NCBI GenBank assembly: GCA_964408085.1
Contig: CAYOYB010000003.1
Coordinates: 99,314-131,313, forward strand
Reading direction: 5' to 3'
Length of the DNA: 32,000 bases
DNA from: an uncultured Muribaculaceae bacterium
GTDB lineage: Bacteria; Bacillota_I; Bacilli_A; RF39; UBA660
Shown here piece after piece: positions 4,833 to 25,065 of the stretch. The notes under the pieces were generated by a model, which worked only from the letters and a program-made list of their open reading frames with translations, had not been told where the DNA came from and did no database searches. A program made the translations under genes and the position numbers. Position 1 is the stretch's first letter. Every line of letters starts with the position of its first letter.

Positions 4833-4836
4833 AATA

Positions 4837-4875
4837 AAATCTATTAGTATTTTTTAACTAATAGATTTTTTATAT
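4837..4875. terminator. Bidirectional rho-independent terminator between convergent genes
   Basis: The stem AAATCTATTAG / CTAATAGATTT has an A-run on its left and a T-run on its right. It sits between the stop at 4832 (+) and the stop at 4877 (-). Confidence 0.7.
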
Positions 4876-4876
4876 T

Positions 4877-5728
4877 TTATATTTTTTCTATATTATTAAT
4901 ATTAATCGCGCAAGTTACAGTATCACCTATACCAATTACGACGCGATCTCCATTTATCTCTAAAACATCATAAGCATCATAATAAAGAACAAAAGGTTCA
5001 CCATTATATTGAATAGCGTTCTTTACTTTTACTTTATCTCCAACATTAATTAATGCATTACCTTCAATAATTCTAACAATACAATCATTATTAACCCAGC
5101 CAATATTGCCATCATTTAATAAATAAGGATTTCTAACATTTTCTAATATTTTAGTAATAGTTCCTGTCGTAACTAAAGGAGTCATCATATTTTCATCAAC
5201 AGAAGAAATATAAACACCATTTATTTCAACATTATCACCTATTTTATAACCTGATTCTGGTTTTGTAATACCAAAGTAATTATAAAAACTATCTATATTG
5301 ACTTGACCATTTGTTTCATCAAAGTATGATTTTTGCTCTCTTGTATCAATATGACTATAATTAGAACCATACCCAATTCCTAAGATTCCTAAATCCTCAG
5401 CAATAAGGCAAACATCTTTAGAATCGATTAAATTATTTTCAGAATTATAACACATAATATCAGCTGCCATACCTTTAGAATGGTATCCTAAAAAGCCCCC
5501 AATAGCTTCATCAAAATCATTACTACGATAACCCGATGTGATTTTAATTATGCTACAATTTAATTTAGAGAATATTTGTTCTAGCATTTCAGGAAGTCGT
5601 TCATCAATTAAAACAGTATCAGTTGTTAATCTATCTTGCTCATCCCAAAAACTTCTAAATTCCCAAACTTGAAAATGTGGTGTTAAAAATAAATTTTTAT
5701 CTTTTTCATATGAATATTCTTTTACCAT
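4877..5728 (-). CDS. Peptidase M15 (VanY/M15A-like zinc D-Ala-D-Ala carboxypeptidase fold) with two C-terminal SH3-like repeats
   Basis: M15 metal/catalytic motifs are present: ITSGYRS, HSKGMAADI (HxxGxAxD) and SHIDT. The C-terminal half carries two IGDxVxI...-type repeats. There is no signal peptide. A GGAGG SD lies upstream. Confidence 0.7.
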   Translation of the reverse strand: MVKEYSYEKDKNLFLTPHFQVWEFRSFWDEQDRLTTDTVLIDERLPEMLEQIFSKLNCSIIKITSGYRSNDFDEAIGGFLGYHSKGMAADIMCYNSENNLIDSKDVCLIAEDLGILGIGYGSNYSHIDTREQKSYFDETNGQVNIDSFYNYFGITKPESGYKIGDNVEINGVYISSVDENMMTPLVTTGTITKILENVRNPYLLNDGNIGWVNNDCIVRIIEGNALINVGDKVKVKNAIQYNGEPFVLYYDAYDVLEINGDRVVIGIGDTVTCAININNIEKI

Positions 5729-5788
5729 TTTTTAAACCTCCACTCAATATATCATATGAAAGATAATATTAATGGAAAGTGTATTTGT

Positions 5789-8845: not shown

Positions 8846-8874
8846 TTGCAAAACAATTAAGATTGTGCTAATAT
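8846..8874 (+). promoter_or_regulatory. Sigma-A-type promoter for the small RNA
   Basis: TTGCAA (8846-8851), a 17-nt spacer, then TAATAT (8869-8874) preceded by TGc (extended -10). Confidence 0.55.
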
Positions 8875-8880
8875 GTATAT

Positions 8881-8995
8881 AGATGAAGTTTTCTTCATAA
8901 AATAAAAAAGGATACATTTGATTGGCAGAATCAAATGCATTCCCTTATTGGATTGCATCTGAAATCACATAGTTGTGAGATCAGATGTTTTTATT
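8881..8995 (+). ncRNA. Candidate antisense small RNA (type I antitoxin-like), about 115 nt
   Basis: It starts a few nt after the promoter above. It has three hairpins: ATGAAG/CTTCAT (8883-8898), GGATACATTTGATT/AATCAAATGCATTCC (8910-8943), and CATCTGA...TCAGATG (8956-8987). The last is followed by TTTTTATT, giving an intrinsic terminator. It contains only a 5-codon ORF. It is fully complementary to the 3' end of the convergent peptide mRNA. Confidence 0.45.
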
Positions 8996-9179: not shown

Positions 9180-9312
9180 TTGCTTTTTAAAAGTTTTCAA
9201 ATAACATAAAAATTTTTATTTTAACTAATCTTTTATATTGAATAATTATTTTCTTAGACTAAATTAACCATATAAACTTAAAACTATGATATAATTTATT
9301 TAGGTGGTAAAC

Positions 9313-10110
9313 TTGAATATATATAAAACATTAAATGATATAACTAAGTATATAGATGAACATTTAGAAGAAAAAATTGACTATACAATTTTAGCAAAAA
9401 TGATGGGTATAAATGTCTATACTATGCAAAGAATATTTTCTTTAATAACTGGTATATCAGTAGCTGAATATATAAGAAAAAGGCGATTATCAAATGCTGG
9501 CTTTGATCTATATTCAACTAAGGCAAAAGTTATAGATATTGCGATTAAATATCAATATGATAGTACTGAATCATTTTCACGAGCTTTTAAAACATTCCAT
9601 GGTATTAATCCAAGTTTAGTAAATAAGTTTTCTAAACTTAAAAATTATCCTAGAATTATTTTAAATGAAGAAGTAAATATTACTAGTGAATTAGAATATG
9701 AAATTATCGAACTTGAACAAAAAGAATTATATGGTATTGGCATAAAGACTAATAATGAAAATATTGGAACTGATGCCCCAAATTTTTTTATGAATTGTAA
9801 GCTTAATTATGAAGAAAAGTTTGGAAAAATAAAATATGGTATGATTGTTTATGGGGATGATATAAGAGAACAATGTAGTGCATATTATATTTTATATGAT
9901 AAAAAGATAGAAGGTTTTGAAAAAATAATTATACCAGCTAGTAAATGGTTAGTATTTAGGATTAACTCTAATGATGCTAAAGATATTCAGGAAATGTCTA
10001 ATAAATTTTATTTTGAATTTTTGCCGTCTTGTAAATATAATCTAAGAGAAATCCCTGAACTAGAATATTATCATGATGATGTAACTGATTTTTTAGTACC
10101 AATTTATTAA
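9313..10110 (+). CDS. AraC-family transcriptional regulator with C-terminal GyrI-like effector-binding domain
   Basis: The N-terminal half has a double HTH (ILAKMMGINVYTMQRIFS..., SFSRAFKTFHGINPS). The C-terminal roughly 150 aa look like a GyrI/SOUL-like fold. I prefer the TTG at 9313 (AGGTGG 5 nt upstream) to the track GTG at 9304. A TGaTATAAT promoter lies at 9287-9295. Confidence 0.75.
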   Translation: MNIYKTLNDITKYIDEHLEEKIDYTILAKMMGINVYTMQRIFSLITGISVAEYIRKRRLSNAGFDLYSTKAKVIDIAIKYQYDSTESFSRAFKTFHGINPSLVNKFSKLKNYPRIILNEEVNITSELEYEIIELEQKELYGIGIKTNNENIGTDAPNFFMNCKLNYEEKFGKIKYGMIVYGDDIREQCSAYYILYDKKIEGFEKIIIPASKWLVFRINSNDAKDIQEMSNKFYFEFLPSCKYNLREIPELEYYHDDVTDFLVPIY

Positions 10111-10113
10111 ATT

Positions 10114-10146
10114 GATAAATTTGGTAATATAAAAGTCAGTTTTTTT
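10114..10146 (+). repeat. 33-bp repeat, copy 1 (contains TGgTAATAT extended -10 box)
   Basis: GAtAAATTTGGTAATATAAAAGTCAgTTTTTT. It nearly matches 11122-11153 and starts 70 nt upstream of the next ATG. Confidence 0.7.
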
Positions 10147-10183
10147 TATATCAATTATTATAAAATTGAAAGGGAGGTAGTTT

Positions 10184-11113
10184 ATGAAAAATGATATATT
10201 AAATTTTTATTTGCAAACTAGCATTTACACTAATTATTATCCATTTGCTGATTATTATAGGAGTTTACCAGATAATATTGAAGAATTATCAAAATTATTA
10301 TATCATCAGGTAATTCACCGAACTGAATTAATTAGAAGTTATTTAAATAGTCCTAGTAAATATGATAATACATTTGAAATTAACAAAATTAAAGAACAAT
10401 ACCCATGGTATAAAAATAGGTGTGATGACGATATCTTACTAACAGCCCCAGCTATTACAGCTGAGTTATTTCGCCAAGATCCTCGTGGTTTTATAATGGG
10501 AAGGCAAATAAAAGATAGAGTGGTTATTACTTGTAGATATGTCGCTGTTTTACTTGCATCTATTTTAAAGGCTAAAGGCATTCCTGCACGTTGTCGTAGT
10601 GGGTATGCTGATTATTTTCTAAAAAAACGTGGCAAAATATTTTATGATCATTGGATTGTTCAATATTATAATGCTAAGGAAAAAAGATGGGTTAATGTTG
10701 ATCCTGATAATGACTATAAAGTATCATTTAATCAATATGATTTTCCTAATAAAGAATTTCAGTGGATTGCTAAAGTTTGGCTAGATGTTAGAAAAGGGCA
10801 TGATGATTATAAAAGATATATTCATGGTAGTTCCTATAATGGTTTAAATAATTTAGCGTATGCTTTATTTTTTGACTTTCATTCTTTAATGAATGATGAG
10901 ATATCCTATTTATTTTTTCCAACCATGTTTGATAAAAAAGATGAATTTAATAATTTAACAGACGAAGAATTAAGTAGACTTGATAATCTGGCAATGTTAA
11001 TGTTAGATCCTGATAAAAATTTTGATGAGCTTAGATATCTATTTAGAAATGATAAATGGCTGCGTATTATCAATACACCATTATTAAGTGATCAAGACCA
11101 TTTAGAAATATAA
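10184..11113 (+). CDS. Transglutaminase-like (papain-fold Cys-His-Asp) domain protein
   Basis: 309 aa. The core motif arrangement is CRYVAVLLASILKAKGIPAR (Cys), then DHWIVQYY (His), then RWVNVDPD (Asp). An AGGGAGG SD lies upstream. Confidence 0.65.
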   Translation: MKNDILNFYLQTSIYTNYYPFADYYRSLPDNIEELSKLLYHQVIHRTELIRSYLNSPSKYDNTFEINKIKEQYPWYKNRCDDDILLTAPAITAELFRQDPRGFIMGRQIKDRVVITCRYVAVLLASILKAKGIPARCRSGYADYFLKKRGKIFYDHWIVQYYNAKEKRWVNVDPDNDYKVSFNQYDFPNKEFQWIAKVWLDVRKGHDDYKRYIHGSSYNGLNNLAYALFFDFHSLMNDEISYLFFPTMFDKKDEFNNLTDEELSRLDNLAMLMLDPDKNFDELRYLFRNDKWLRIINTPLLSDQDHLEI

Positions 11114-11121
11114 TTCAAGCT

Positions 11122-11153
11122 GACAAATTTGGTAATATAAAAGTCAATTTTTT
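11122..11153 (+). repeat. 33-bp repeat, copy 2
   Basis: GAcAAATTTGGTAATATAAAAGTCAaTTTTTT. It starts 70 nt upstream of the ATG at 11192, the same distance as copy 1. Confidence 0.7.
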
Positions 11154-11191
11154 ATTGTCTTTTTTTGTTATACTTTTTTAAGGTGATTTTT

Positions 11192-13036
11192 ATGCATTAT
11201 TGGTTGGAAATTTATCTTACTAAAAATGATACATCAAAGGAAGACTGGTTAGGATTAATTAAAACAATTTCTAATTATAATAGTAATTTTAGAAAGTGGA
11301 AGATTATTATCAAAATTGAAGATAATAAAATTAGATATTTTATTAAATCGCGATGTAACTTACCACCTACCATTAATAATTTAAGTTCCTTTTTATTCAA
11401 AAATATTGAAGAATTTAATATTCCAAGAGAATATTTATCATTACCTTTTTTATCAAAACCAGAAAGCAATGTTATTGATATTACGAATTATTGTAGTATT
11501 AAAAATAAAGGTAATTTAGAATATTTAGAAATAACCTTCCAAAAGTTATATGATGATAAAATTAAAACTAAAACAACTTTTTATTTAAATAAAAATGGAG
11601 ATATAAAAAAATATAGAACGTTTTTCACTTTACCAACTAATATTTTAGCAATTAATTTTTCACTTAATAAAAGATATTTTTTTAAAAGCGCACCTAAATA
11701 TTTAGATATAAATAAAATATTACATTTACTTGATAGTGAGCAAAAAGGAGCTATTTTAAAAGTAGATACCTTTCCATATTTACAGGGGAATTTTTATTTA
11801 AAACAAAATACATATAATTTTAATAAACATTCCATTATTATTGGTTCAAGTGGTAGTGGTAAATCAAAATTTCTTAGTTCACTTATAAAAAATATTAGTA
11901 GTAATTTTAAACAAAACTATAAAGTTGTGGTTATTGATCCCCATGCTGATTTAGAAAATGATATTGGTGGACTTGGAAAAACAATCGATTTTAAAAATAA
12001 TTTAGATAGTATTGATCCTTTTATTAAAGATAGTTCTAATATTGTCTCGACAACAGAATTATTATTAGAGCTTTTTAAATCGTTAATTTCTGATCAATAT
12101 AATTCAAAATTAGAAAGAGTTTTAAGACATTCTATTTATCTATTATTAGTAAATAATTCTTTTAATTTTAGTAATTTACGTAAATTAATTCTAGATTTAG
12201 AATATCGAAATTCATTGATCAAAAAACTAAAATTAAACTTACCTATAAGTGTTATTGACTTTTTTTTATCAGATTTTAGTAATTTAAAGACAGGTTCTTA
12301 TAATGAAGCTATATCCCCTATTATTGCTTTTATAGATGAAATGGAAATGATCCCTGTTTTTAATGGGCAAAGCGATTTACCAGATTTAAAACACACTATT
12401 AAAGAGAATTTTTTAACATTGTTTTCTCTTGATAGAACAAAATTAGGTGATAAGGTAACAAAGACTATTGCTGGTTTAATAATGCAACAATTACTTACTA
12501 TAATTCAAAGTCGTGAGATAAATGAACATATAATTTTTGTAATTGATGAAGTAGCAGTTATTGAAAACCCTATTCTTTCACGATTTTTATCTGAAGCTAG
12601 AAAATATAACTTATCATTAATATTAGCAGGGCAATTTTTTAGTCAAATATCTGATAGTTTAAAGAGTTCAATATTCGCTAATGTTATTAATTATTATATA
12701 TTTAGAGTTTCTAAATTAGATGCCAATTTGTTAGTCGATAGTTTTAACATGAAAATACCATTAGATGATACAAGAGATAGAAAAATAAAACTATTAACAG
12801 AATTAAGTACTAGAGAATGTATAGTTAGAGTTGATTGTAATGGGATATTACTACCTGCTTTTAAAGCTAGTACTTTAGATTATGAAAGTCTGCCTAGAAT
12901 AAAATGTGAAAATATAAATAACAGTATTGTTAATAGCAATACGAAAATAAAGAAATGTAATTTTAAAATAGATAATAATGTTAATCTAAAAGATATTTTA
13001 ATATTAAGTTCTTCTAGTAGAAAGGTTGTGAAATAG
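11192..13036 (+). CDS. HerA/FtsK-superfamily (DUF87-like) P-loop NTPase with an N-terminal domain of about 220 aa and unknown function
   Basis: Motifs present: Walker A IIIGSSGSGKSKF, the HerA-type VVVIDPHADL block, Walker B IIFVIDEVAV, and the family's conserved SEARKYNLSLILAGQFFSQI block. No TM segments. I prefer the ATG at 11192 (AAGGTGA 5 nt upstream) to the track TTG at 11165. Confidence 0.75.
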   Translation: MHYWLEIYLTKNDTSKEDWLGLIKTISNYNSNFRKWKIIIKIEDNKIRYFIKSRCNLPPTINNLSSFLFKNIEEFNIPREYLSLPFLSKPESNVIDITNYCSIKNKGNLEYLEITFQKLYDDKIKTKTTFYLNKNGDIKKYRTFFTLPTNILAINFSLNKRYFFKSAPKYLDINKILHLLDSEQKGAILKVDTFPYLQGNFYLKQNTYNFNKHSIIIGSSGSGKSKFLSSLIKNISSNFKQNYKVVVIDPHADLENDIGGLGKTIDFKNNLDSIDPFIKDSSNIVSTTELLLELFKSLISDQYNSKLERVLRHSIYLLLVNNSFNFSNLRKLILDLEYRNSLIKKLKLNLPISVIDFFLSDFSNLKTGSYNEAISPIIAFIDEMEMIPVFNGQSDLPDLKHTIKENFLTLFSLDRTKLGDKVTKTIAGLIMQQLLTIIQSREINEHIIFVIDEVAVIENPILSRFLSEARKYNLSLILAGQFFSQISDSLKSSIFANVINYYIFRVSKLDANLLVDSFNMKIPLDDTRDRKIKLLTELSTRECIVRVDCNGILLPAFKASTLDYESLPRIKCENINNSIVNSNTKIKKCNFKIDNNVNLKDILILSSSSRKVVK

Positions 13037-13735
13037 ATGAATGATAATATTGCTTTAGATATAGTTAATAAAATTTTTAACAATGTTTTTGAAACTGACA
13101 ATAAATTTTCTTTGAAAGATTTACTAGATAAATTTGCCTTTGATATTAAATTACCGAATAAGGTAAATGATTCTACAACTAATGAAATAACATGGGCTGA
13201 TTCAATAAATAGTGGTAAATTTATCACTAATCAAAATATGCAGAAAAGAGATGAATCTATAGGGTGGATGTTACCCAAAAAAGATATCAATAATCTGCAA
13301 GAAATTATTGATTTATGGAATAGTATTAATTTAACTACAACTGAAAGATTTTTTAACTCTGTCAATGTCGCAAAAAGTGATACAATTTATGGTTGTCAAA
13401 ATGTCTATAGATGTAGTAATTGTAGTAACTCTAAAAATATAATTTACTGTGATTCTTGTGGTAGTTCAGAATATCTTCTTGCTTCACAAAGATCAGTAAA
13501 TTGTAATTTTTGTATACGATGTGATGATTCTAAAGATTGTAGTAATAGTTATAGTGTTATTTATTCAAATAAAGTCAGTAATTCTTTATTTATTCAAGAT
13601 TGCTTTAATTTATATGAATGTATGTTTTGTTCACATATTGCTTCAAAAAAGTTTTGTATTGCCAATATGCAATTTGAAGAAGAAGAATATTATGAAATAA
13701 AAAAGCTAATTATCGATTGGATATTAGCCTCTTAA
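13037..13735 (+). CDS. Cys-repeat protein of unknown function (13 Cys in the C-terminal ~90 aa)
   Basis: The ATG directly follows the TAG of the NTPase gene (TAGATG). The N-terminal 118 aa have no Cys. After that the pattern C-x5-C-x2-C-x8-C occurs twice, flanking C-x2-C...C-x2-C-x2-C-x5-C. There is almost no His, so it is not HNH-like. Confidence 0.6.
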   Translation: MNDNIALDIVNKIFNNVFETDNKFSLKDLLDKFAFDIKLPNKVNDSTTNEITWADSINSGKFITNQNMQKRDESIGWMLPKKDINNLQEIIDLWNSINLTTTERFFNSVNVAKSDTIYGCQNVYRCSNCSNSKNIIYCDSCGSSEYLLASQRSVNCNFCIRCDDSKDCSNSYSVIYSNKVSNSLFIQDCFNLYECMFCSHIASKKFCIANMQFEEEEYYEIKKLIIDWILAS

Positions 13736-15582: not shown

Positions 15583-16521
15583 CTAATCTTCTAAAAAATT
15601 CATTACTAAATCAATTAGTATTTCTTTTTCTTTAGGATTGGATTGCGCGATTAATAATGTAATTGCTACTAATGCATTATTATCTATAACTTGTTTGTTA
15701 TTTTTATATAGAATGCCATAATATTGTAAGAAATATATAAATAATGTTGCTGCAATTCTTTTATTACCATCGATGAAAACATGGTTTTTTATAATCAAAT
15801 ACAAAAAATTAGCTGCTTTTTCTTCTAAAGAAGGATAAACATCTTTACCATCAAATGATTGATAAATAGTACCTATTATACCTTTTAGTCCATTATTTCT
15901 TTCCAAAGCAAATAAATTACTTTCGCTATTAAATTTTAAATCATTAATTATTTTAAGACAATCTTCATATTCAATTACATTATTATTTATAGTTCCTTTT
16001 GGTTTAGAAATTTTTTTATGGTCATAATCATCAAGTAATCCTAATGCATTTGAGTAACCATTTATAACTCTTATTATTCCTTTTACATCACTATCATGTA
16101 ACTCTGAATCAATTCGACTAGCAATATCTATTAATTTGACTGTTTTTTCTAAATATTCTAATCTTTGTTCATTAATAGAATAACCTTTTATTAAATGTTC
16201 TTTAAGTATCTTATTAGCCCATTTTCTAAAAATAATTCCATTTTTAGATTTAACACGATATCCTACACTAATAATCATATCTAGATTATAATGTTGAACA
16301 TTATATATTTTTCCATCCTTTGCAGTTGTTGCAAAATTTGCAATAACTGTCTCAGTACTTAGTTCTTCTTCTAAAATATTTTTTATATGCCTTGATATAA
16401 CAGATTTATCTCTATCAAATAATTTTGACATTTGCTCTAGAGATAACCAAACAGTTTCATCTTTCATATTTACTTCTAATTTAATACTTTGATTTTCAAA
16501 TAATATTATTTCATTTTTCAT
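15583..16521 (-). CDS. RhuM-like N-terminal domain fused to a Doc-type Fic domain
   Basis: The N-terminus (IKLEVNMKDETVWLSLEQMSKLFDRDKSVISRHIKNI...NLDMIISVGYRVKS) resembles the RhuM virulence-protein family. The C-terminus carries HVFIDGNKRIAATL, which matches the Doc variant of the Fic motif, HxFx(D/N)(A/G)NKR. Confidence 0.7.
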   Translation of the reverse strand: MKNEIILFENQSIKLEVNMKDETVWLSLEQMSKLFDRDKSVISRHIKNILEEELSTETVIANFATTAKDGKIYNVQHYNLDMIISVGYRVKSKNGIIFRKWANKILKEHLIKGYSINEQRLEYLEKTVKLIDIASRIDSELHDSDVKGIIRVINGYSNALGLLDDYDHKKISKPKGTINNNVIEYEDCLKIINDLKFNSESNLFALERNNGLKGIIGTIYQSFDGKDVYPSLEEKAANFLYLIIKNHVFIDGNKRIAATLFIYFLQYYGILYKNNKQVIDNNALVAITLLIAQSNPKEKEILIDLVMNFLED

Positions 16522-16587
16522 ATTTTTTCCTCCTATTAATAATATATTAACACATCATTTAAACTAAATTATCTTTGTGTTAACTAA

Positions 16588-16616
16588 ATTATATAGAAAA
16601 TATGTTCGCTTGTCAA
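16588..16616 (-). promoter_or_regulatory. Consensus sigma-A promoter for the RhuM/Doc-Fic gene
   Basis: The minus strand reads TTGACA, exactly 17 nt, then TATAAT. The leader that follows contains the inverted repeat TTAACACA-N21-TGTGTTAA (16547-16583). Confidence 0.65.
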
Positions 16617-16646
16617 CACTAAAAAAAAGAAATTAGAATCATTATC

Positions 16647-17480
16647 CTACTTTCTTTTTTTACTATAATGCTTAACTTTCTCTTGGAGATTTTGATATTC
16701 TTTTTTATCATCAGATTCATCAAACCAATTTTTGCATATTGTCGATATTTGAGAATAGCCCCAATCTTCAGAATTAGTATATGAAAATATATCATCTATA
16801 TCTTCTTGTATAGCATCTAATAATTCTTTCATATCTTTAAGAACTTTTTGTTTTTTAAACTTTTTCCTTAATAATTTACCAAACAACGAAAAATTATCAT
16901 TAACAAAGCTAGATATATTATCACTATAAATTTCAATTTTAATATCTAAAGAAGGAATTAATTCATACTCTTCTTCTTTAAAATTTGGATTTTCTTCAAT
17001 AGGAATTGTTTTTTCGTTTAAAATAACTATCGTTTTGTCAGATACCATTTTTTTAATTTCTTCTTTTGAATATGTCTTACTATCATCAAAATTAACATCA
17101 TCAACAATTGCTGCAACATAACATATTTGATAAAGTTGTGTCCACCAACTCAAATCCCTGCCACGGCCCTCTGTTTTGTTATCAAAAAAAGTTATTGTGG
17201 TAGGAATTTCACAGATTTTAGAATATTTTTTGCCATTGTTTTCAGAGAACATTTCTAAATAGTCTTCTTCAGTAAGTGATATACTATAAAATTTGGTTAA
17301 TAAATCATAAAATTCTTTATCTGTTAGCTTTTTAAAATCTGTTTCAATTATTTTCTTTAAAATATCAATGTATTTTCTCATTTGTGTTTTAAATACTTCA
17401 ACATTTTCCTCATCACTATTACGATGTATATAGGCATATGTATCATGATACAATGAAACTCTACTTTTTCCAACGTACAT
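16647..17480 (-). CDS. Hypothetical protein (277 aa, acidic, K-rich tail)
   Basis: Long ORF with an AGGAGG SD and its own TGcTATAAT promoter. I recognise no motif. Confidence 0.55.
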   Translation of the reverse strand: MYVGKSRVSLYHDTYAYIHRNSDEENVEVFKTQMRKYIDILKKIIETDFKKLTDKEFYDLLTKFYSISLTEEDYLEMFSENNGKKYSKICEIPTTITFFDNKTEGRGRDLSWWTQLYQICYVAAIVDDVNFDDSKTYSKEEIKKMVSDKTIVILNEKTIPIEENPNFKEEEYELIPSLDIKIEIYSDNISSFVNDNFSLFGKLLRKKFKKQKVLKDMKELLDAIQEDIDDIFSYTNSEDWGYSQISTICKNWFDESDDKKEYQNLQEKVKHYSKKRK

Positions 17481-17749
17481 TTGAATACCTCCTTGTTTAG
17501 TTTTTTATTATAGCATATTTTCTTTAAATTGTATATAATTTTATAATAAAAATTAAATTGATAATTAATAATAACATAGTAATATACATTTTTTGCACAT
17601 TACTTTCTTTTTCTACAGTTACCTTTTAGCAAATGACACTAGCTAAATTTCCAAGAAAAAATTACTTTTTCTGTTGTTAAATGCTTCCAAAGGATTAATA
17701 ATATTTTGTACTTGATAATGCATTATTTGCTGAATATAAAGTAATAAAT

Positions 17750-18451
17750 TTATAAATATTTTCTTATTTTTAAATATCTATAAAGTACAGGACAAATATC
17801 CTCTATATTAAGTTTTGTATTATGAATAGCATAATTTAATATATCACTCATATTATAGGAATTATTTATAGTACATTTTTTTATTTTTGATATTGCAATT
17901 CCATGATTTGAAAAAGTGTGCAAATTCCATCTATCCATTTTTATAGAATCTAAATCAGAATATTTTAAAGAATATCCTGCTTTTATTAGATAATCCTTAT
18001 CATATCCTTTTGCTTTAATCTCATCAATATCATTAAAACTAAAGTCTACATCTTCTTTAATATCTGTGTTTAATAATATATAACTTTTTAAAAACCAATC
18101 AAAATATTTATATGCAACAATCCTATGTAATTTATTGATTTCAGTCCATTTAAAATAAACATTAATAATAAATTTTGAAAATCTATTTTTTCCTCTTATC
18201 TTAGTTCCTAAGTTAAATGCTCCTGGAATATGAGGATACTTTTCACAAACATTTATCCAACAGTCAAATAATATTAATAAATTATCTAACCCTTCAACAA
18301 AAAACACTTTTTTGGAATCCTCCAGTGATTGAGCATGAAATGATATTTTAGGTAATAACCCATTTTTAATAATGGATTCAATATTATTTTTTTTAGTAAA
18401 ATGAAAATAATTGGAATTTATATCATTTAGGTTCAATTTATAATCTCCCAT
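17750..18451 (-). CDS. Hypothetical protein (233 aa)
   Basis: Long ORF with its own TGaTATAAT promoter. The N-terminal YFHFTKKNNIESIIKNGLLP only vaguely recalls the opening strand-helix of ADP-ribosyltransferase-fold proteins, so I leave it unassigned. Confidence 0.55.
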   Translation of the reverse strand: MGDYKLNLNDINSNYFHFTKKNNIESIIKNGLLPKISFHAQSLEDSKKVFFVEGLDNLLILFDCWINVCEKYPHIPGAFNLGTKIRGKNRFSKFIINVYFKWTEINKLHRIVAYKYFDWFLKSYILLNTDIKEDVDFSFNDIDEIKAKGYDKDYLIKAGYSLKYSDLDSIKMDRWNLHTFSNHGIAISKIKKCTINNSYNMSDILNYAIHNTKLNIEDICPVLYRYLKIRKYL

Positions 18452-18507: not shown

Positions 18508-18788
18508 AAAAATAAATTAGAATGAACTAATTTATTTTCTTAATAATTAATCTTAATGAGTTTAAAACTAATAATAGTGTAACTTCTACATCAGCAATAA
18601 CTATATACCAAATTTTTGAATATCCTAATGTACCCAATAGAAGAAATAAAAATTTAATTGTAAGAGCAAAAACAATATTAAAGCGAACAATTTTGTTAGT
18701 TTTTTTAGATATCTTTATAGCATCACTTATTTTATCTAAATTATCAGTCATTAAAACAACGCTTGAAGCTTCAATTGCTGCATCACTA
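18508..18788. repeat. 281-bp direct repeat, copy 1 (orphan copy of the P-type ATPase 3' end plus terminator)
   Basis: It aligns base for base with 23214-23494, with about ten mismatches by eye and no indels. Confidence 0.9.
18527..18788 (-). pseudogene. 5'-truncated remnant of a heavy-metal P-type ATPase gene (last ~87 codons)
   Basis: It translates to ...SDAAIEASSVVLMTDNLDKISDAIKISKKTNKIVRFNIVFALTIKF...LRLIIKKIN, nearly identical to the C-terminus of the 610-aa ATPase at 23233-25065. Homology stops abruptly at 18788. Confidence 0.85.
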
Positions 18789-18976
18789 ATTTATAATTCC
18801 AAACAATTTTTGGAAGATAAAAAGTACCTTTTATGTTATGGGAATATTCCCAAAAATTACCTTTAGCACAATACTAGCTGGCTTGCACAGCTTGATAATT
18901 TGCTACTAACATATTTAAAAGTTAGTTGAAAATACATAACGATTAGTTACTAAGTTTCTTTTAATTAGTCAAAATT

Positions 18977-20203
18977 CTAAAAAATATTCAAAAAAGATTT
19001 TGCTTTATTAATATATGGTTTTCGTTCTAAAATTAATTCTTTCGAATCTATAGGAACATGTATATCTTTTTCATTAATAAATATATAATTAATATCTTTT
19101 CTTGATGAATTTCCAAATAATTCAATTGGTAAATAATAATTCATTATAATCCATAATACATCTGAACAATTTTTTGGAAAAAAACCTTCACCATCTGTTA
19201 TAACAATCTTGTTGTCAGCATCCTTTGAAAAACTTTCGGCCATAGCTGTAAAATCAGTAAATCCTCTACCTTTTATATGCAAATTATCAATATCGCTATC
19301 ATTTCTTATCTCATTCCAACCATAAAATTCGATATCACAAAATCCCACCTTTATTTGACTAGCAGATAATATATTTTTGCATTCTCTCAAAATTGCTTTT
19401 ATTTTTTGCATACTCATAGAACCACTACTATCGATAATTATTTCGCTTTCAGCATATGATATATCTTGTTTTTCTTCTTTTTTTATTATTCCATCAATTT
19501 CTACTTCATAAAATGCAGTGGTTACTTCATCTGGAGTAACTATATTTGCTCTTAATAATTCTTTCCAATAAATAAGAGGAGCTGCTCTTTCAACACTAAC
19601 ACTAGGAAATTCGATCCCTAATGACATGTTTCCAAATTGAGCCTGTTTTTTTAGTTCTTCTTGAAAATCCCCTAACAATTCATTTCTTAAATGGCTATTT
19701 TCACCCATTAAATCTTGTAAATCTTGATTATATACTTCATTTACCCACTCTTCTAAATCAGATATTTCCATGTGATAAGTATTTGCATTCATCCATTCTT
19801 TAATTTGCTTTAATTGAGGTAAATATTTCATATATAATTCTTCTGTAGAATAATCTAGTGCATCTGGAATATCTACAAGGCCTTCTGGCATTGTTAGTCC
19901 ATCCTTTACTAATAACTGATTAATAATAGCATCTTCAACATAGTTCAATAAATCTCTATCTCTTCCAACATTTCTAAATAAATGACTTAATACTATGTGA
20001 AATATTTCGTGAGCAACAATAAATTCTTTTTCATCATCAAAATAATCATCAATAAATTCTTGCTTATAAAAAATACATCTTCCATTAGTAAATGCTGAAG
20101 CAGGAACTGACTCATTCGTAAATTTAAATTGCAAATTAACAATAACATTACCAAACAAAGGATATCTTATTAAAAGATTTCTAATAATATTATTTATTTC
20201 CAT
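18977..20203 (-). CDS. HExxH metallopeptidase-like domain fused to a vWA domain (DUF2201_N/DUF2201-type architecture)
   Basis: The N-terminal domain has AHEIFHIVLSH (HExxH). The C-terminal vWA domain has an intact MIDAS, IIIDSSGSMS ... VITDGEG. The start overlaps the AAA+ gene's stop by 14 nt. Confidence 0.75.
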   Translation of the reverse strand: MEINNIIRNLLIRYPLFGNVIVNLQFKFTNESVPASAFTNGRCIFYKQEFIDDYFDDEKEFIVAHEIFHIVLSHLFRNVGRDRDLLNYVEDAIINQLLVKDGLTMPEGLVDIPDALDYSTEELYMKYLPQLKQIKEWMNANTYHMEISDLEEWVNEVYNQDLQDLMGENSHLRNELLGDFQEELKKQAQFGNMSLGIEFPSVSVERAAPLIYWKELLRANIVTPDEVTTAFYEVEIDGIIKKEEKQDISYAESEIIIDSSGSMSMQKIKAILRECKNILSASQIKVGFCDIEFYGWNEIRNDSDIDNLHIKGRGFTDFTAMAESFSKDADNKIVITDGEGFFPKNCSDVLWIIMNYYLPIELFGNSSRKDINYIFINEKDIHVPIDSKELILERKPYINKAKSFLNIF

Positions 20204-22046
20204 TTGATTCTAGCCTTTTAATAAATGGTTTATTAGATTGACTATATAATTTCATAATCCTTTGTTCATTATCTTTAGACCATTCATAATCAAAAACTGC
20301 TAAAAATTCTTTACCTAATCCACTAACAAACTCTCTTACTTTATCCACATTATCATCATCGACTGTACTTAAACACATTGTTGTATACCATCTTAAAGAA
20401 GGGTCAAATGGTACATCTTCTATGTTATATCTATTATTTAAGACATCATCAATAGTTATTAAATTCATTTTGCTGAATTTTATAAAATCTCGAGTAAGAC
20501 TTTCCCCAATAAATGCACGAAGTACATTGGGGTTATTACTTTGATATAATGCCTTTGAAGCTAAAGCCCATTTTCTTGGATCAGCATTAGGATTTACTCC
20601 ATCATATTGTGTTCTTAACACATTATCACCATTAACTCTTATATAATCTACAATTGCAGGATGTATTCCATCAATTTTTTGTTGACCTTTATAAAGTAAT
20701 TGCTTGCCATCTTTTTCTCTTTTTAATGCCCATTTTAGCCACTCTTCAGAATCAGTATTTATATAAACATGAGCAAATCTTCCAAACAATGGTTCACTTA
20801 ATGAATTTGCTGATCTTGATTCACTTGCTTCATTCCCTGCAGCGCATACAACAGCATTTTCTGGTAATTTCAATCTATATCCGCTGTTTGTTAGTGTTTT
20901 ATTTAATGTTACTTCAAAAGCAACTTTTTGTATGTCATTCTTTGCATTAGTTAATTCTTCTAAAAATAAGATATGCAATTTATCTGGTTCATCTGCACAT
21001 TTCTTACATAAACTTTTATACCAATAAGGTTCATATAAAAATAGTTCTTTTGAATTAAAATCTTTAGCTATAATACCTGTAAAGCCATCTGAACTTGTAC
21101 AACCAAAATCAATTAATTCTAAATTTCTATCTAGTGTAAGCATTCTTTCTGTTTTCCCAACACCAGTTTTACCATGTAAAAATACCGCAATGTTGCTATT
21201 TATACATATCTCAATTATTTCTTCTTCTGTAAGTGGAGTAAAATTAAACCCATAACGATTATTATCTTCTTTTTCTTCATCGCTAAATAATAATGCTGGT
21301 GCAGTATGTTCTAATTCATCATTGATGCTTTTTAAGAATTCATTATTTAAATATCTATTTAAATCACTATCTTTAAATTCTCTACCTGCTATATCAAAGT
21401 TTGCACCAAATAATACAATTGAGGAATATACTAATTTTGCTTTTTCATCTATAGTTAATGGAATACTTTCAACTTTTAAATAAACATCAGTATCTGCTTT
21501 ACTTATTGTTCCATCGCTCAAAACTTTTGATTCAACTTTATTTTTCTTTCTTATAAATCTTATACCAAATGCTTCATATTCGCAATATTCTTTTTCATCT
21601 ACAAAATGTGTTCTTCCTGTTGTAATAATTAGTTTACTTTTATTATCAAATAATTTGTCTATTATTTCTCCAACTCTTCCACCTATAATAGTTAGTGGGT
21701 ATTCAATATTTAAATTTTGTAATTCATTTAAATCAAAGTCTTCAATATCATCAAATGAAAAAGCTATTCTAACCCCATGTTTAAAATTAGTTTTAGTAGT
21801 TTGAGATAATACTCCACTATTATTAATATAAATCATATTATTAGTAGTAGCTTTATTCTTTTTATTAATAATATATTTTCCATCAAGCCAATATCCTCCA
21901 AAACCATTTGATTGATCATATGAAACCCCCGTTAAACGAGCCAAATCAGAGCAATAACATTCAACTCCTGATTGTTTTATAGTCTCTAGCATATTTTCAT
22001 CTTTAATATGTTCTTCTTTTAAAATTCCTATCCTCTTAATTTTCAT
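20190..22046 (-). CDS. MoxR/AAA_5-like AAA+ ATPase with an unassigned N-terminal extension of about 290 aa
   Basis: Motifs present: Walker A FLHGKTGVGKTERM, Walker B HILFLEELT, sensor-1-like VVCAAGNE, and LSEPLFGRFAHVYI (Arg-finger region). The first ~290 aa have no motif I can assign. A GAAGGGGGA SD lies upstream. Confidence 0.75.
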   Translation of the reverse strand: MKIKRIGILKEEHIKDENMLETIKQSGVECYCSDLARLTGVSYDQSNGFGGYWLDGKYIINKKNKATTNNMIYINNSGVLSQTTKTNFKHGVRIAFSFDDIEDFDLNELQNLNIEYPLTIIGGRVGEIIDKLFDNKSKLIITTGRTHFVDEKEYCEYEAFGIRFIRKKNKVESKVLSDGTISKADTDVYLKVESIPLTIDEKAKLVYSSIVLFGANFDIAGREFKDSDLNRYLNNEFLKSINDELEHTAPALLFSDEEKEDNNRYGFNFTPLTEEEIIEICINSNIAVFLHGKTGVGKTERMLTLDRNLELIDFGCTSSDGFTGIIAKDFNSKELFLYEPYWYKSLCKKCADEPDKLHILFLEELTNAKNDIQKVAFEVTLNKTLTNSGYRLKLPENAVVCAAGNEASESRSANSLSEPLFGRFAHVYINTDSEEWLKWALKREKDGKQLLYKGQQKIDGIHPAIVDYIRVNGDNVLRTQYDGVNPNADPRKWALASKALYQSNNPNVLRAFIGESLTRDFIKFSKMNLITIDDVLNNRYNIEDVPFDPSLRWYTTMCLSTVDDDNVDKVREFVSGLGKEFLAVFDYEWSKDNEQRIMKLYSQSNKPFIKRLESNGNK

Positions 22047-22075
22047 TTGGAATCCCCCTTCAAAATGTAAGTATT

Positions 22076-22104
22076 ATAATAGCATAAATGGTTTATCTTT
22101 ACAA
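22076..22104 (-). promoter_or_regulatory. Promoter of the AAA+/vWA operon
   Basis: The minus strand reads TTGTAA, 17 nt, TGcTATTAT (extended -10), about 30 nt upstream of the ATG. Confidence 0.55.
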
Positions 22105-22619
22105 TTATTTTCAATTAATTTATAAAAAATTTTCCAAGAGATTTTTAACACATAAGATTATAAAATTATTTTATAGTCATCTTTAACTTTGTATTTATAA
22201 TTCATTTTAATTGTTTTTAAATAACTGGGTACTACTGCATATCCTCCTTAGTAATACCTTTAGAAATGTCATATATATCTTTTACCTCAAAATCTTTATT
22301 ATCAAAATAGTCTTTTATTTCAACTTGTTGTGATTTCTTTTATCTTATCATTGTAAATTGTTATAGTTCTCTGAAAAGTGCTTAATTGCTTCTAAAATAG
22401 ATTTTAAATAGTATTTAGGGTTATTATTTTCTTTTGTTAAAGTTTTATTTTTAGTATACATGAAAATTCTTGAATTTATTTTACTATTAAATTACTACTT
22501 CATACACGATTTTTGTTAACAAAAAAATCTTATATATTTTTATAAACGATAAAAATGTATACTTGTTTTAATATGATATGATATGATATAATATCTATGT
22601 AAATGGAGGTTTATATACT

Positions 22620-23075
22620 ATGATTAAAACTGTTAAATATCCTAATTTTGATGAATACGACTTTATTAGATTATATTGTGCAATGAATTTTAAAAATGAA
22701 CTTTCACCAATTATAAAACATCATGAATTAGAAAAACGATTATACGCATTATACTCTTTACCTGAATTTAGAGAACTATTCCAAGGCATAATTCCTAAAA
22801 GGGATTATATAAACCCAGATAATAGTTATTTGGATTTAGGAACTGCATTAAATACAGCACAATTATTTGGATTATTAACACCAATAGATAGAGTTGGAGA
22901 GATTAGATCAATTGTTTCATGTGATAATGATATAGCACAAGAAATAATATCAAATTCTGATGCAGAAATGGTTAATAAAATGACTAACTTGTTTAATACA
23001 ATGTTTAACCTAGATCATAATTCAAAAGATGAAAGATTTATTGATCCTCAAGCGAAGATCTATAGTAAGCATTAA
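22620..23075 (+). CDS. Hypothetical protein (151 aa)
   Basis: It has a GGAGG SD and a TTGTTT-17-TGaTATAAT promoter whose spacer holds (TGATA)x3. It is divergent from the AAA+ operon and lies inside the same duplicated-flank segment. I recognise no motif. Confidence 0.55.
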   Translation: MIKTVKYPNFDEYDFIRLYCAMNFKNELSPIIKHHELEKRLYALYSLPEFRELFQGIIPKRDYINPDNSYLDLGTALNTAQLFGLLTPIDRVGEIRSIVSCDNDIAQEIISNSDAEMVNKMTNLFNTMFNLDHNSKDERFIDPQAKIYSKH

Positions 23076-23142
23076 AATCTCCCATTAGGCAAGAAGTACA
23101 GAGTCCAAAACTAGTAAAAAGAAATTAATATAAAAATAATTA

Positions 23143-23167
23143 AAATAGCAAAAATATGCTATTTTTT
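23143..23167 (+). terminator. Rho-independent terminator of the 151-aa gene
   Basis: Stem AAATAGCA / TGCTATTT followed by a T-run. Confidence 0.6.
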
Positions 23168-23213
23168 CTATTTCATTATGAAAAGAAAATCATTAAAATA
23201 ATTTTTCAAACAA

Positions 23214-23494
23214 AAAAATAAATTAGAATGAACTAATTTATTTTCTTAATAATTAATCTTAATGAGTTTAAAACTAATAATAGTGTAACTCCTACATCAG
23301 CAATAACTGCATACCAAATTTTTGAATATCCTAATGTACCCAATAGAAGAAATACAAATTTAATTGTAAGAGCAAAAATAATATTAAAGCGAACAATTTT
23401 GTTAGTTTTTTTAGATATCTTTATAGCTTCACTTATTTTATCTAAATTATCAGTCATTAAAACTATACTTGAAGCTTCAATTGCTGCGTCACTA
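23214..23494. repeat. 281-bp direct repeat, copy 2 (3' end and terminator of the intact ATPase gene)
   Basis: It matches 18508-18788. It includes the terminator hairpin AAATAAATTAG/CTAATTTATTT, which spans the TAG stop. Confidence 0.9.
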
Positions 23495-25065
23495 CCAACT
23501 CCACCCATAGAAATACCTAAATCAGATATTTTCATAACTGGTGCATCATTAATTCCATCGCCAACAAAGGCAGTAAAATTATCTGTTTTTAAACTAGTAA
23601 CCTTATTTACTTTATCAATAGGGAGCATATTGTAATAGTATTCATTAATACCTAATTTTTGACTTACTTTAGTTACAATATCTTTATTATCACCTGACAA
23701 CATAATAATCTTATTAATACCTTCTTTTTTTAATGTTTTAACAAGATTATATGCTTCTTCTTTTATTTCATCAGCAATAACAATATAACCTAAATAGGTT
23801 TTATTTCTAGCAAGATAAACAATTGTTCCAAGCTCATCTGATTTTGTTAGACTAATATCATTATCAGTTAAAAGTGAATAATTACCTATCAATAAATCAT
23901 CGTTATCTATTTTAACAGATATTCCTTTTCCACTTATTTCTTGAAAATCACTTATTCTGTTCTTTAAAATTTCTTTATCATATTTTTTAATAATCGATGT
24001 AGCAATTGGATGATTAGAATAATATTCACCAAAAGCCGCTAATTCTAGTAGTTCATCTTCACTAATATTAAGACTAACTATTTTTTGAACTGAAAAATTC
24101 CCTTTTGTAATAGTACCTGTTTTATCAAAAACAATATTTTTAATTTTAGATAAATTTTCTAATTCAGTTCCACCTTTAATCAAGATACCCTCTTTACTAG
24201 CACGACCAATTCCAGAAAAGAATCCTAGAGGAACAGAAATAATAAGTGCACATGGACATGATGTAACTAGAAAAACAAGTGATCTATATAACCAATCATT
24301 CAAATTTTGTCCTAACAAAACTGGCACTAATGTTAGAAGAAAAGCGCAAATAACTACAATTGGAGTATAAATTCTACAAAATCTTGTAATAAATTTTTCT
24401 GTTTTTGTTTTTTTATCCTCAGAGTTTTCAATTAACTCTATTATTTTAGTAGCTGTACTAGTTTCAAAAGTTGATGTTGCTTTAATTGTTAATACTGTAT
24501 CTATATTAGTTGTTCCACTTAAGACATTCATATCTTTTTTAACATGTCTTGGTATGGATTCTCCAGTTAAACTAGATGTATCAATACTTCCTTCACCATC
24601 AATAACAATTCCATCCAAACCAATTTTTTCACCAGGTTTAACAATAAAAATATCGCCTAATTTAATTTCCTTAATATCTATATTTTTGATTTTCTCGTTA
24701 ATTTTTATATTGATAGTATCACTTCTTAAATCCATTAGTTTAGTAATAGATTCTTCAGAATTATCAACAGCTTTATCAGATAGATATTCCCCTAAATTAA
24801 AAAGTAACATAACCATTAGAGCTTCTTCATATTCACCAATAAAGAATGCTCCTATTGTTGCTATAATCATAAGAAAGTTTTCATCAAAGATTTCTCCTTT
24901 TAAGATATTTTTGATTCCTTCAATATACATTTCATAAGATACAATGATATAACTAATAACTAACAATGTTAAATGTAGTATCTCATTATCTTTAAACATA
25001 AATGAAACAATAAAAATAATCGCACTTATAATAATCTTAAAAAATTCAAAATTAAATTTTTTCAT
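23233..25065 (-). CDS. Heavy-metal-translocating P1B-type ATPase (CPC type, Cd/Zn/Co-like), lacking an N-terminal HMA domain
   Basis: 610 aa. Motifs present: TM6 SCPCALIISVP, phosphorylation site DKTGTIT, SNHPIA (HP motif), and GDGINDAP hinge. The protein starts directly with TM helices. Confidence 0.9.
   Translation of the reverse strand: MKKFNFEFFKIIISAIIFIVSFMFKDNEILHLTLLVISYIIVSYEMYIEGIKNILKGEIFDENFLMIIATIGAFFIGEYEEALMVMLLFNLGEYLSDKAVDNSEESITKLMDLRSDTINIKINEKIKNIDIKEIKLGDIFIVKPGEKIGLDGIVIDGEGSIDTSSLTGESIPRHVKKDMNVLSGTTNIDTVLTIKATSTFETSTATKIIELIENSEDKKTKTEKFITRFCRIYTPIVVICAFLLTLVPVLLGQNLNDWLYRSLVFLVTSCPCALIISVPLGFFSGIGRASKEGILIKGGTELENLSKIKNIVFDKTGTITKGNFSVQKIVSLNISEDELLELAAFGEYYSNHPIATSIIKKYDKEILKNRISDFQEISGKGISVKIDNDDLLIGNYSLLTDNDISLTKSDELGTIVYLARNKTYLGYIVIADEIKEEAYNLVKTLKKEGINKIIMLSGDNKDIVTKVSQKLGINEYYYNMLPIDKVNKVTSLKTDNFTAFVGDGINDAPVMKISDLGISMGGVGSDAAIEASSIVLMTDNLDKISEAIKISKKTNKIVRFNIIFALTIKFVFLLLGTLGYSKIWYAVIADVGVTLLLVLNSLRLIIKKIN

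Follow-up and report, generated by a model that had tools for sequence, protein, structure and literature searches.

Here we describe a two-gene module in a 32-kb stretch of DNA (the window) from an uncultured Muribaculaceae bacterium (GTDB RF39; UBA660; assembly GCA_964408085.1, contig CAYOYB010000003.1). The module comprises two minus-strand open reading frames (ORFs), one encoding an ATPase of 618 aa and the other a partner protein of 408 aa, which overlap by 14 nt at 20190-20203 (Table 1). An original prediction, made from the sequence alone, had reported both genes, their overlap and their catalytic motifs, all of which were confirmed in the ORFs and their translations; the N-terminal domain of the ATPase, which it could assign to no family, can now be placed in a family related to DUF6273, a lectin-like domain. 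In a sister clade the equivalent domain is the target of a diversity-generating retroelement (DGR). The domain is fused to a divergent MoxR-like AAA+ ATPase, and the partner is a putative zincin metallopeptidase joined to a vWA domain. We regard as evenly poised the reading of this pair as a sensor-ATPase-protease conflict module, that is, a soluble, cytoplasmic, two-gene sensor-effector system; the hypermutation in the sister clade points to a role in recognition, probably an immune one. Judged by domain composition, the fusion of a lectin-like domain to the ATPase, together with the zincin-vWA protein, is a new element that adds to the known MoxR-vWA modules, some of which are DGR-coupled.

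The N-terminal domain is related to DUF6273

Residues 1-262 of the ATPase are predicted by AlphaFold2 (AF2) to form one mostly-beta domain (predicted local distance difference test, pLDDT, 90.2; predicted template modelling score, pTM, 0.87; 23 homologues). The window protein matches DUF6273 (PF19789) at 15.3 to 18 bits, under the cut-off of 23.5, with residues 223-246 aligned to profile positions 32-55; in relatives, residues 51-97 match positions 117-170 of 172. DUF6273 is matched by five of 23 N-terminal domains of the family, with a best E-value of 3.2e-5. The clearest picture comes from a protein carrying the domain in tandem (P0122), in which residues 214-375 match positions 5-170 of the 172 in the model (E 7.8e-6, 26.3 bits) and span the junction between the two copies. 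Recovery of the model across a tandem junction implies a permuted arrangement; on sequence grounds, the most apt description of the N-terminal domain is that of a DUF6273-like domain that is circularly permuted and carries an inserted beta-rich segment.

The domain is widespread. A profile built from it matches 3,854 representative protein clusters; most of these matches are stand-alone proteins of ~270-340 aa, while the others carry the domain in tandem or join it to ankyrin repeats or DUF4116. DUF6273 itself has been described as a C-type-lectin-like DGR target in receptor-binding proteins of gut phages, with the variable region located at the C-terminal end of the domain (PMC10743442; bioRxiv 10.1101/2024.10.15.618418). 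Because of the relationship to DUF6273, and because of the DGR hypermutation in the sister clade described below, recognition is the function that best suits the N-terminal domain. The earlier proposal that it acts as the sensor is thereby strengthened as far as recognition is concerned; the ligand is something that we infer.

Further lectin-like proteins were seen near some copies of the module (loci are designated by L numbers). In L040 four membrane-anchored proteins (393-473 aa; one at 4559-5776 plus three paralogues) flank the module and carry DUF6273-like motifs (WPNSTLKKLLN ... VYPVLYLKS), and in L086 a canonical 440-aa DUF6273 protein (19408-20730) is found 7 kb away from it. The L040 and L086 genomes thus seem to hold several lectin-like paralogues, which could be further DGR targets.

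A diversity-generating retroelement targets the domain in a sister clade

Genes for Avd and a reverse transcriptase (RT) lie directly upstream of the ATPase gene in 19 of 79 genome loci (within L027-L079). The RT (346 aa; RVT_1, E 1e-17) contains YMDD and LGNQTSQ motifs, and the bAvd-like protein is 196 aa long (E 3e-4). At 14 of these 19 loci a template of 77-103 nt, situated between Avd and RT, finds its counterpart 215-330 nt into the ATPase gene; in L072, for example, the template is at 577-676 and the variable region at 2211-2310.

Mismatches between the two repeats are concentrated at template adenines: 165 of 188 over the 14 loci and 152 of 174 in the 13 pairs that align without gaps (87-88%), the templates of which are 31% A (binomial against a 40% null, p ~4e-42). 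Substitutions affect 45% of template adenines. The variable region covers residues ~72-110 of the DGR-bearing homologues and finishes at a conserved G-x-R-P-A-L motif. Two pairs of loci (L070 and L072; L032 and L065) have a common template and differing variable regions. This pattern of template and variable repeat is the defining DGR signature and, as read from the repeats, the sensor domain of the sister clade is hypermutated.

Sequence variation is also high in relatives of the DGR-less clade. Among 80 close homologues the most variable stretch of 15 aa is residues 76-90 (2.78 bits), and the N-terminal domain as a whole shows 2.3 times the variability of the ATPase part (1.76 versus 0.76 bits).

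The ATPase and its zincin-vWA partner

The ATPase motifs are GKTGVGKT (292-299), HILFLEE (358-364), VVCAAGNE (399-406) and LFGRF (420-424). AAA_5 is matched by residues 288-424 only (profile positions 2-139 of 139, E 5.6e-5, 23.6 bits, a small margin over the cut-off of 22), in agreement with the earlier view that motifs of the MoxR/AAA_5 type are confined to the C-terminal part of the protein; a longer stretch, residues 274-596, matches phrog_1297 (E 1.4e-41). G292, G297, K298, E364, N405 and R423 are invariant among 26 diverse homologues. The AF2 model of the full-length protein has a mean pLDDT of 84.6, and both models, of the N-terminal domain and of the full-length ATPase, are confident. 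In a Foldseek search of PDB with the full-length model, MCM subunits came first (E 7e-10), but with a template modelling (TM) score of ~0.26 and a root-mean-square deviation of ~30 Å; NorQ chains of the NorQ-NorD complex (9qhd_B; E 4.6e-9, TMt 0.47) were the runners-up. MCM and NorQ belong to the same AAA+ clade. A search of PDB sequences with the full-length family profile returned no match. Although the ATPase is divergent, these sequence and model comparisons make "MoxR-like" a reasonable label.

The partner matches DUF2201_N (PF13203; 63.3 bits, cut-off 23.2) and the vWA-like domain DUF2201 (PF09967; 34.4 bits, cut-off 26.4), with the E-values given in Table 1, and also phrog_1314 (E 1.2e-39). 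Its motifs are AHEIFHIVLSH (64-74), DSSGSMS (258-264) and TDGEG (336-340). Among 76 homologues the zincin residues H65, E66, H69 and H74 are 97-100% conserved, and residues D258, S260, S262, T316 and D337 of the metal ion-dependent adhesion site (MIDAS) are 99-100% conserved. The HExxH protein with a vWA domain and MIDAS that had been anticipated is therefore borne out by both Pfam matches, each above its cut-off: the partner joins a putative metallopeptidase to a vWA domain whose MIDAS is intact. To judge from conservation, the HExxH, MIDAS and ATPase residues are under purifying selection. No transmembrane segment or signal-like stretch was detected in either protein (maximum KD19 hydrophobicity 1.13 and 1.16) and, because neither has a hydrophobic segment, both are predicted to be cytoplasmic.

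Family, gene coupling and hosts

The architecture of N-terminal domain plus ATPase was found in more than 100 proteins from gut metagenomes, and 234 matching stretches were found in a one-genome-per-species collection. More than 80 full-length homologues (50-88% identity) have the same architecture as the window protein. The hosts are almost all uncultured Bacilli, represented by metagenome-assembled genomes labelled Erysipelotrichales, Tenericutes/Mollicutes, Anaeroplasma or Coprobacillus.

In a census of clustered ORFs from 85 loci plus the window, the zincin-vWA gene follows the ATPase gene, either directly or past a gene of 133 aa, in 80 of 86 loci. The 163 ORFs located no more than two genes away from the module each form a cluster of their own (163 clusters). 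The pair is thus strictly coupled while its surroundings vary, as expected of the autonomous, tightly coupled unit that had been proposed. The window-like clade (54-88% identical) consists of two genes with an overlap of 11-14 nt (e.g., L002, L004, L090); the distant sister clade (~35% identical) has the 133-aa gene between the ATPase and vWA genes in 52 loci, and its ATPase gene is often tandemly duplicated. A conserved small upstream gene was considered for the close clade and rejected, since the upstream ORFs of 14 loci are unrelated.

The 133-aa middle gene has no Pfam match and is missing from the window clade. It is present in L006 and L025-L085 (e.g., L032 11410-11811). A hidden Markov model (HMM) of this family weakly matches an ORF in the module region of the window (E 1e-3), from which it follows that the 133-aa protein may be a degenerate AAA fragment. 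Homology to gp60 of Acinetobacter phage XC38 (locus L095 3189-3596) was considered, and none was detectable.

Sets of two to three ATPase paralogues, each with the N-terminal domain and lying in tandem or nearby, are common in the sister clade (L006, L030, L038, L040, L044, L055, L056, L059, L060, L064, L078, L082 and L083). In L089 (1-11058) a sister-clade module and a window-type module lie three genes apart. The duplications suggest expansion of sensor repertoires.

The module in the window is carried by an inserted cassette

The inserted segment of 4.4 kb reported by the original prediction is real: a cassette of 4,425 nt lies between direct repeats of 281 nt (Table 1). The repeats duplicate the final 262 coding nt of a P-type ATPase gene (23233-25065) together with 19 nt 3′ of it, and the two copies (96% identity) differ by 11 mismatches scattered over the full length. 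This spread of mismatches implies that the copies had diverged before they came together, rather than having arisen by fresh duplication, and the cassette boundaries fit recombination with incoming DNA that bore its own copy of the target. A tandem arrangement of islands, with a third copy of the repeat, was rejected because only two copies exist; an integrated small plasmid was likewise rejected, a blastn search of the cassette against 72,556 plasmids having given no match.

The cassette's own ORFs include no recombinase gene (ORF and Pfam scan), and neither the cassette nor its 574-nt intergenic region has an Rfam match to a structured RNA at E <= 0.1. A Logan contig of 4,516 nt from a different run holds the same three genes. 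The 151-aa ORF of the cassette occurs only with the identical cassette in L001 and is not conserved upstream of other family members. An empty-site strain was sought by exact look-ups: the ATPase protein was not on record, and the contig with the 233-aa neighbour stops at the repeat.

Direct repeats of local sequence flank the module in two further loci, L009 (43 nt; 2401-2443 and 5628-5670) and L024 (49 nt; 5732-5779 and 8864-8911), and differ from locus to locus. The L024 repeat duplicates a promoter-like TTGAAA-17-TATTAT, the L009 repeat the 3′ end of the upstream gene. Such locus-specific repeats suggest cassette-like movement by a route that is not site-specific. Elsewhere the module is located between a Mob_Pre relaxase and a serine recombinase, on an integrative and mobilizable element (IME; L004), or has a tyrosine integrase plus a DnaB-like ATPase on one side and a type I restriction-modification system on the other (L090, L091).

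Comparison with known systems

The ATPase core and the zincin-vWA protein are homologous to a phage pair, PHROG 1297 and PHROG 1314, of N4-like and jumbo phages (group 2.2). The phage ATPases are about 24% identical to the bacterial core, the phage partner likewise consists of DUF2201_N and DUF2201, and the two genes are co-located on the same strand; in phage XC38 the order of the ATPase gp61 (340 aa), gp60 (135 aa) and gp59 mirrors the bacterial order of AAA, 133-aa and vWA genes. In contrast to the bacterial family, the phage ATPases are about 340 aa long, lack the N-terminal lectin-like domain and have no linked DGR. The phage genes are also core genes of lytic phages with a predicted role in assembly, whereas the bacterial family is nearly absent from viral contigs. 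The 14 N4-like phage core genes include N4 gp24, of unknown function, and gp25, with a vWFA domain, both of them middle transcripts (PMC4193335), and the jumbo-phage pair was predicted by Iyer et al. to be a chaperone-cochaperone with a peptidase in virion assembly (PMC7824862). By analogy, the bacterial module may have a non-defence role.

The phage partner has a confusing annotation. XC38 gp59 is labelled "HNH endonuclease" yet matches the DUF2201 partner, and other phage homologues of the zincin-vWA protein (NC_055823.1 gp59, NC_048659.1, NC_070861.1, NC_071039.1, others) are annotated as HNH or homing endonucleases. PHROG 1314 carries an endonuclease label too, and the window protein that matches it is DUF2201_N/DUF2201 by Pfam. 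The label looks like a propagated misannotation.

A closer conceptual parallel is provided by the MoxR-vWA-VMAP ternary conflict systems of Kaur et al. 2020, which were proposed to be NTP-dependent (PMC7159879) and which the original prediction had described accurately. Coupling of DGR-diversified lectin-like sensors to MoxR-vWA conflict systems has earlier precedent (PMC7159879; PMC10907252), and Dore et al. 2024 interpreted such proteins as antigen sensors (PMC10907252). The bacterial module shares with these systems an ATPase of MoxR-like type, plus a vWA protein and a peptidase; an adjacent DGR that diversifies a lectin-like domain in many members; and a proposed role as an NTP-dependent sensor of invaders. 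It differs in that the lectin-like domain sits on the N-terminus of the ATPase, not on the vWA protein or on a separate target; in having as its peptidase a zincin joined to the vWA protein, an arrangement called rare by Kaur et al. (PMC7159879); and in its hosts, which are small-genome gut Bacilli and not multicellular cyanobacteria, actinobacteria or gammaproteobacteria. No third conserved component of the VMAP type was found in the close clade, where 14 upstream regions are unrelated and the neighbours are all different, although no VMAP-C-specific model was applied.

NorQ-NorD, CbbQ-CbbO and RavA-ViaA resemble the module in having an AAA_5-type ATPase (NorQ being the best match of MoxR type in the fold search, after MCM) and an obligate adjacent vWA partner with a MIDAS. 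Unlike these classical chaperones the module has no linked client enzyme operon, its partner carries a protease domain, its ATPase bears a hypervariable binding domain, and similarity is too low for a match to PDB sequences. The DUF6273 DGR targets of gut phages (tentaclins, Mtd-like receptor-binding proteins) share with the module's domain WW...GxRP-type motifs, a variable region that ends at GxRP and use as a hypermutable binding surface; in contrast to them, the module's domain is apparently circularly permuted with an inserted beta-rich segment, is predicted to be cytoplasmic, and has an ATPase as its fusion partner in place of Ig-like or tail modules. The architecture of lectin-domain ATPase plus zincin-vWA protein was not found described in the literature that we searched, which is absence of evidence only.

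A proposed mechanism

In the mechanism that we propose, the lectin-like N-terminal domain would bind a variable macromolecular ligand, most plausibly a protein of a phage or other mobile element. The ATPase ring would engage the vWA domain and MIDAS of the partner, by analogy with other MoxR-vWA pairs, and ATP-driven remodelling would either activate the zincin or hand the bound ligand to it, the signal thus passing from ATPase to vWA to protease. The zincin would be the effector and its output an immune one. In the sister clade the adjacent DGR (Avd, RT and template repeat) would continually re-randomise the binding surface; the window copy would be a DGR-less version of fixed specificity, travelling as a 4.4-kb cassette that came to rest where a P-type ATPase gene has its 3′ end. 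In its fullest form the proposal is that small-genome gut Bacilli possess a cytoplasmic antibody-like receptor, in which a DGR-randomised sensor on a MoxR-type ATPase triggers or guides a zincin, by way of a vWA/MIDAS hand-off, against any invader protein caught by the variable surface, and that the window cassette is a mobile derivative with frozen specificity. We consider this fuller picture a real possibility that falls somewhat short of an even chance. If true, a DGR would here programme a protease system, in an architecture unlike that of the VMAP ternary systems known from multicellular bacteria.

Why this would matter can be stated briefly. The role of intracellular DGR-diversified proteins is an open question that the module makes testable. 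The link between DGR, lectin-like sensor and MoxR-vWA proteins has so far come from comparative genomics in multicellular cyanobacteria and proteobacteria; the present family is a much smaller version of two to five genes, with sensor and ATPase in one polypeptide and a single zincin-vWA protein as putative effector, and with so compact a layout the coupling of sensor to effector is directly testable. The module is also tied to the ATPase/vWFA core pair of N4-like phages, and a mechanism established in one setting should inform the other. An immune system of this kind would offer protein engineers a naturally occurring scaffold, with a protease under the direction of a hypermutable binding domain, and would show how gut bacteria with reduced genomes defend themselves; were the module a chaperone, the finding would be more ordinary.

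Evidence against an immune role

Several observations weigh against the conflict-module reading. Foldseek searches of the N-terminal domain model against PDB and BFVD returned no fold match, so its C-type-lectin-like fold is not confirmed by structure search; a profile search of PDB sequences gave no match either, and hhalign against one canonical DUF6273 protein gave a weak alignment (E 0.0086). Because structure searches found nothing, the lectin-like assignment rests on the partial Pfam matches and the DGR evidence; the structural check thus yielded a confident AF2 fold and no relative for it. Nowhere in the 32-kb window is there an ORF for RT or Avd, or a template-like stretch that would be a diverged duplicate of the ATPase gene's 5′ 396 nt, and in the window copy the WW...GxRP motif is degraded. 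A DGR located outside the window may act on this copy in trans. Furthermore, in seven of the 19 DGR loci the ATPase gene is split in two by the ORF caller, into an N-terminal fragment of ~75-111 aa and the rest (in L032 the break falls inside the variable region); such splits may stem from faulty assembly of a heterogeneous population or from stops generated by mutagenesis.

The strongest argument against an immune model is that the module has no clear association with defence genes. Most of the 148 immediate neighbours scanned at about 75 loci belong to housekeeping families, and hits to PADLOC or mobile-element families are few; the neighbours include four HTH_3 proteins, three transposase-related proteins, one RhuM and one Schlafen-like helicase. 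Of the two patterns that the original prediction looked for, pairing of the genes is strong, while enrichment of defence genes is not clearly seen among these neighbours, and "defence island" was rejected as a general description. The island of other conflict-type genes that it placed around the window copy proved thin: one RhuM/Fic protein, two family-less ORFs and a DUF87 ATPase operon, the rest being ordinary chromosome. With PADLOC-DB v2.0.0 the ATPase matched only DolB (E 9.7e-4, 16.5 bits, in the P-loop region) and the partner had no hit; no system was assigned to the pair, in line with the original prediction, nor to any of five local proteins, and an NCBIfam scan returned noise only.

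As to the alternative settings of housekeeping or phage operons, a phage morphogenesis operon was rejected as the home of the N-terminally extended family: one full-length relative was found in 2.9 million viral contigs, on a contig that is a DGR-type locus. Many copies do sit among ribosomal, signal recognition particle, RNase or metabolic genes, with neighbours that differ in every genome, while some are on integrative elements and one is beside the type I restriction-modification system. The homologous phage pair also counts against immunity: it lacks the N-terminal domain, is core to lytic N4-like phages, occurs in jumbo phages as well and has a proposed role as an assembly chaperone/protease.

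Alternative explanations

An alternative view, which the last two points favour, is that the module is a chaperone and maturation protease that assembles or matures a specific complex, as in NorQ-NorD, CbbQ-CbbO, RavA-ViaA and the predicted phage pairs, with the zincin processing the complex and the lectin-like domain serving as substrate adaptor and not as immune sensor. NorQ chains of NorQD are the next-best fold matches of the ATPase after MCM, and the phage pair with which the module is homologous (through phrog_1297 and phrog_1314) is expressed in the middle phase in N4-like phages and, in jumbo phages, has a predicted part in putting the virion together. What weighs most against a housekeeping chaperone is the dedicated mutagenesis system aimed at the N-terminal domain: hypermutation by a DGR would be unexpected for a housekeeping adaptor, as would an adaptor that evolves 2.3 times faster than its own ATPase. 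No conserved candidate substrate gene emerged from the 163 neighbours and their 163 clusters, and the family is patchy, mobile and nearly absent from viral contigs. We think a chaperone role unlikely, though well short of negligible. Somewhat more doubtful is a function that serves a mobile element and not the host, such as exclusion of competitors or phages, counter-defence by cleavage of host immune proteins, or addiction. The flanking repeats in three loci (281, 43 and 49 nt), the copies on an IME and an integrase island, and the transposase genes among the neighbours would all fit; yet most copies have no recognisable mobility genes within two genes on either side, the cassette encodes no recombinase, and the explanation overlaps with the conflict-module reading in mechanism, the difference being only in who benefits.

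Most cellular DGR targets have been reported as membrane-anchored binders, and phage DUF6273 proteins are receptor-binding proteins; by that precedent the lectin-like domain could bind other cells, host glycans or particles at or beyond the cell surface. With neither protein carrying a signal peptide or transmembrane segment, and with the domain fused to an AAA+ ATPase of cytoplasmic type (and elsewhere to ankyrin repeats and DUF4116), we hold an extracellular role to be very improbable. Still harder to credit is that the module is a decaying remnant without function in its source genome. It is true that the window copy lacks both the DGR and the 133-aa middle gene and that its WW/GxRP motif is degraded; however, both ORFs are intact in DNA of 24% GC with all catalytic residues kept, the architecture is retained by the more than 80 full-length homologues, and both AF2 models are confident.

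Features of the locus and neighbouring genes

The coordinates of the module and of the cassette are collected in Table 1. The promoter and Shine-Dalgarno sequence ascribed to the module by the original prediction are both present as sequence elements, but the promoter match carries no statistical weight, because promoter-like sites in this 24%-GC region are fewer (27) than in shuffled sequences (43 +/- 7).

Table 1. Coordinates of the module, its domains and the surrounding cassette in the window.
Feature	Position	Strand	Basis
ATPase gene, 618 aa: lectin-like, permuted DUF6273-related N-terminal domain fused to MoxR-like AAA+	20190..22046	-	sequence, Pfam, PHROG, AF2, Foldseek
N-terminal domain, residues 1-262	21261..22046	-	AF2, partial DUF6273 matches
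Variable-region equivalent, residues ~72-105, ending at conserved GVR motif	21732..21833	-	
AAA+ module and C-terminal helical region, residues 263-618: Walker A G292-T299, Walker B E363/E364, sensor-1 N405, R423	20193..21260	-	
Zincin-vWA partner gene, 408 aa, translationally coupled via 14-nt overlap	18977..20203	-	ORF, Pfam, PHROG, conservation
DUF2201_N putative metallopeptidase domain, residues 7-131: H65-E66-x-x-H69 and H74	19811..20185	-	Pfam E 3.7e-17
DUF2201 vWA-like domain, residues 255-354: MIDAS D258/S260/S262/T316/D337	19142..19441	-	Pfam E 2.7e-8
Shine-Dalgarno GAAGGGGGA, 6 nt before ATPase ATG	22053..22061	-	sequence
Promoter-like TTGTAA-17-TATTAT with extended TG	22076..22104	-	consensus match only
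Inserted cassette, 4,425 nt: zincin-vWA gene, ATPase gene, 574-nt intergenic region, 151-aa ORF	18789..23213	.	bounded by 281-nt direct repeats
151-aa ORF, divergent from ATPase gene, cassette cargo	22620..23075	+	without match in Pfam, PADLOC, PHROGs, NCBIfam
Left direct repeat, displaced copy of P-type ATPase 3′ end, with 74-aa ORF fragment 18527-18751	18508..18788	.	96% identical to 23214-23494
Right direct repeat, 3′ end of intact P-type ATPase gene (23233-25065, minus strand) plus 19 nt downstream	23214..23494	.	

Two groups of neighbouring genes deserve mention. On the plus strand of the window (9304-13735) a gene for an AraC/GyrI-like regulator (9304-10110) is followed by genes for a transglutaminase-core protein (10184-11113), a 623-aa DUF87/HerA-like P-loop ATPase (11165-13036) and a 232-aa protein without family (13037-13735); the string has the appearance of an uncharacterised ATPase operon in its own right. 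In L086 a DUF87 protein, unrelated to this one, and a 132-aa gene lie directly upstream of the module.

On the minus strand (15583-18451) are genes for a RhuM-N/Fic-domain protein (15583-16521) and two family-less ORFs of 277 aa (16647-17480) and 233 aa (17750-18451), the sole PADLOC match of the latter being to DarT (E 0.012, 27 residues). A RhuM-family homologue (37% identity, 124 aa) is encoded two genes upstream of the module in L016, and the minus-strand gene string of the window is contiguous in another sample (L096) as well.

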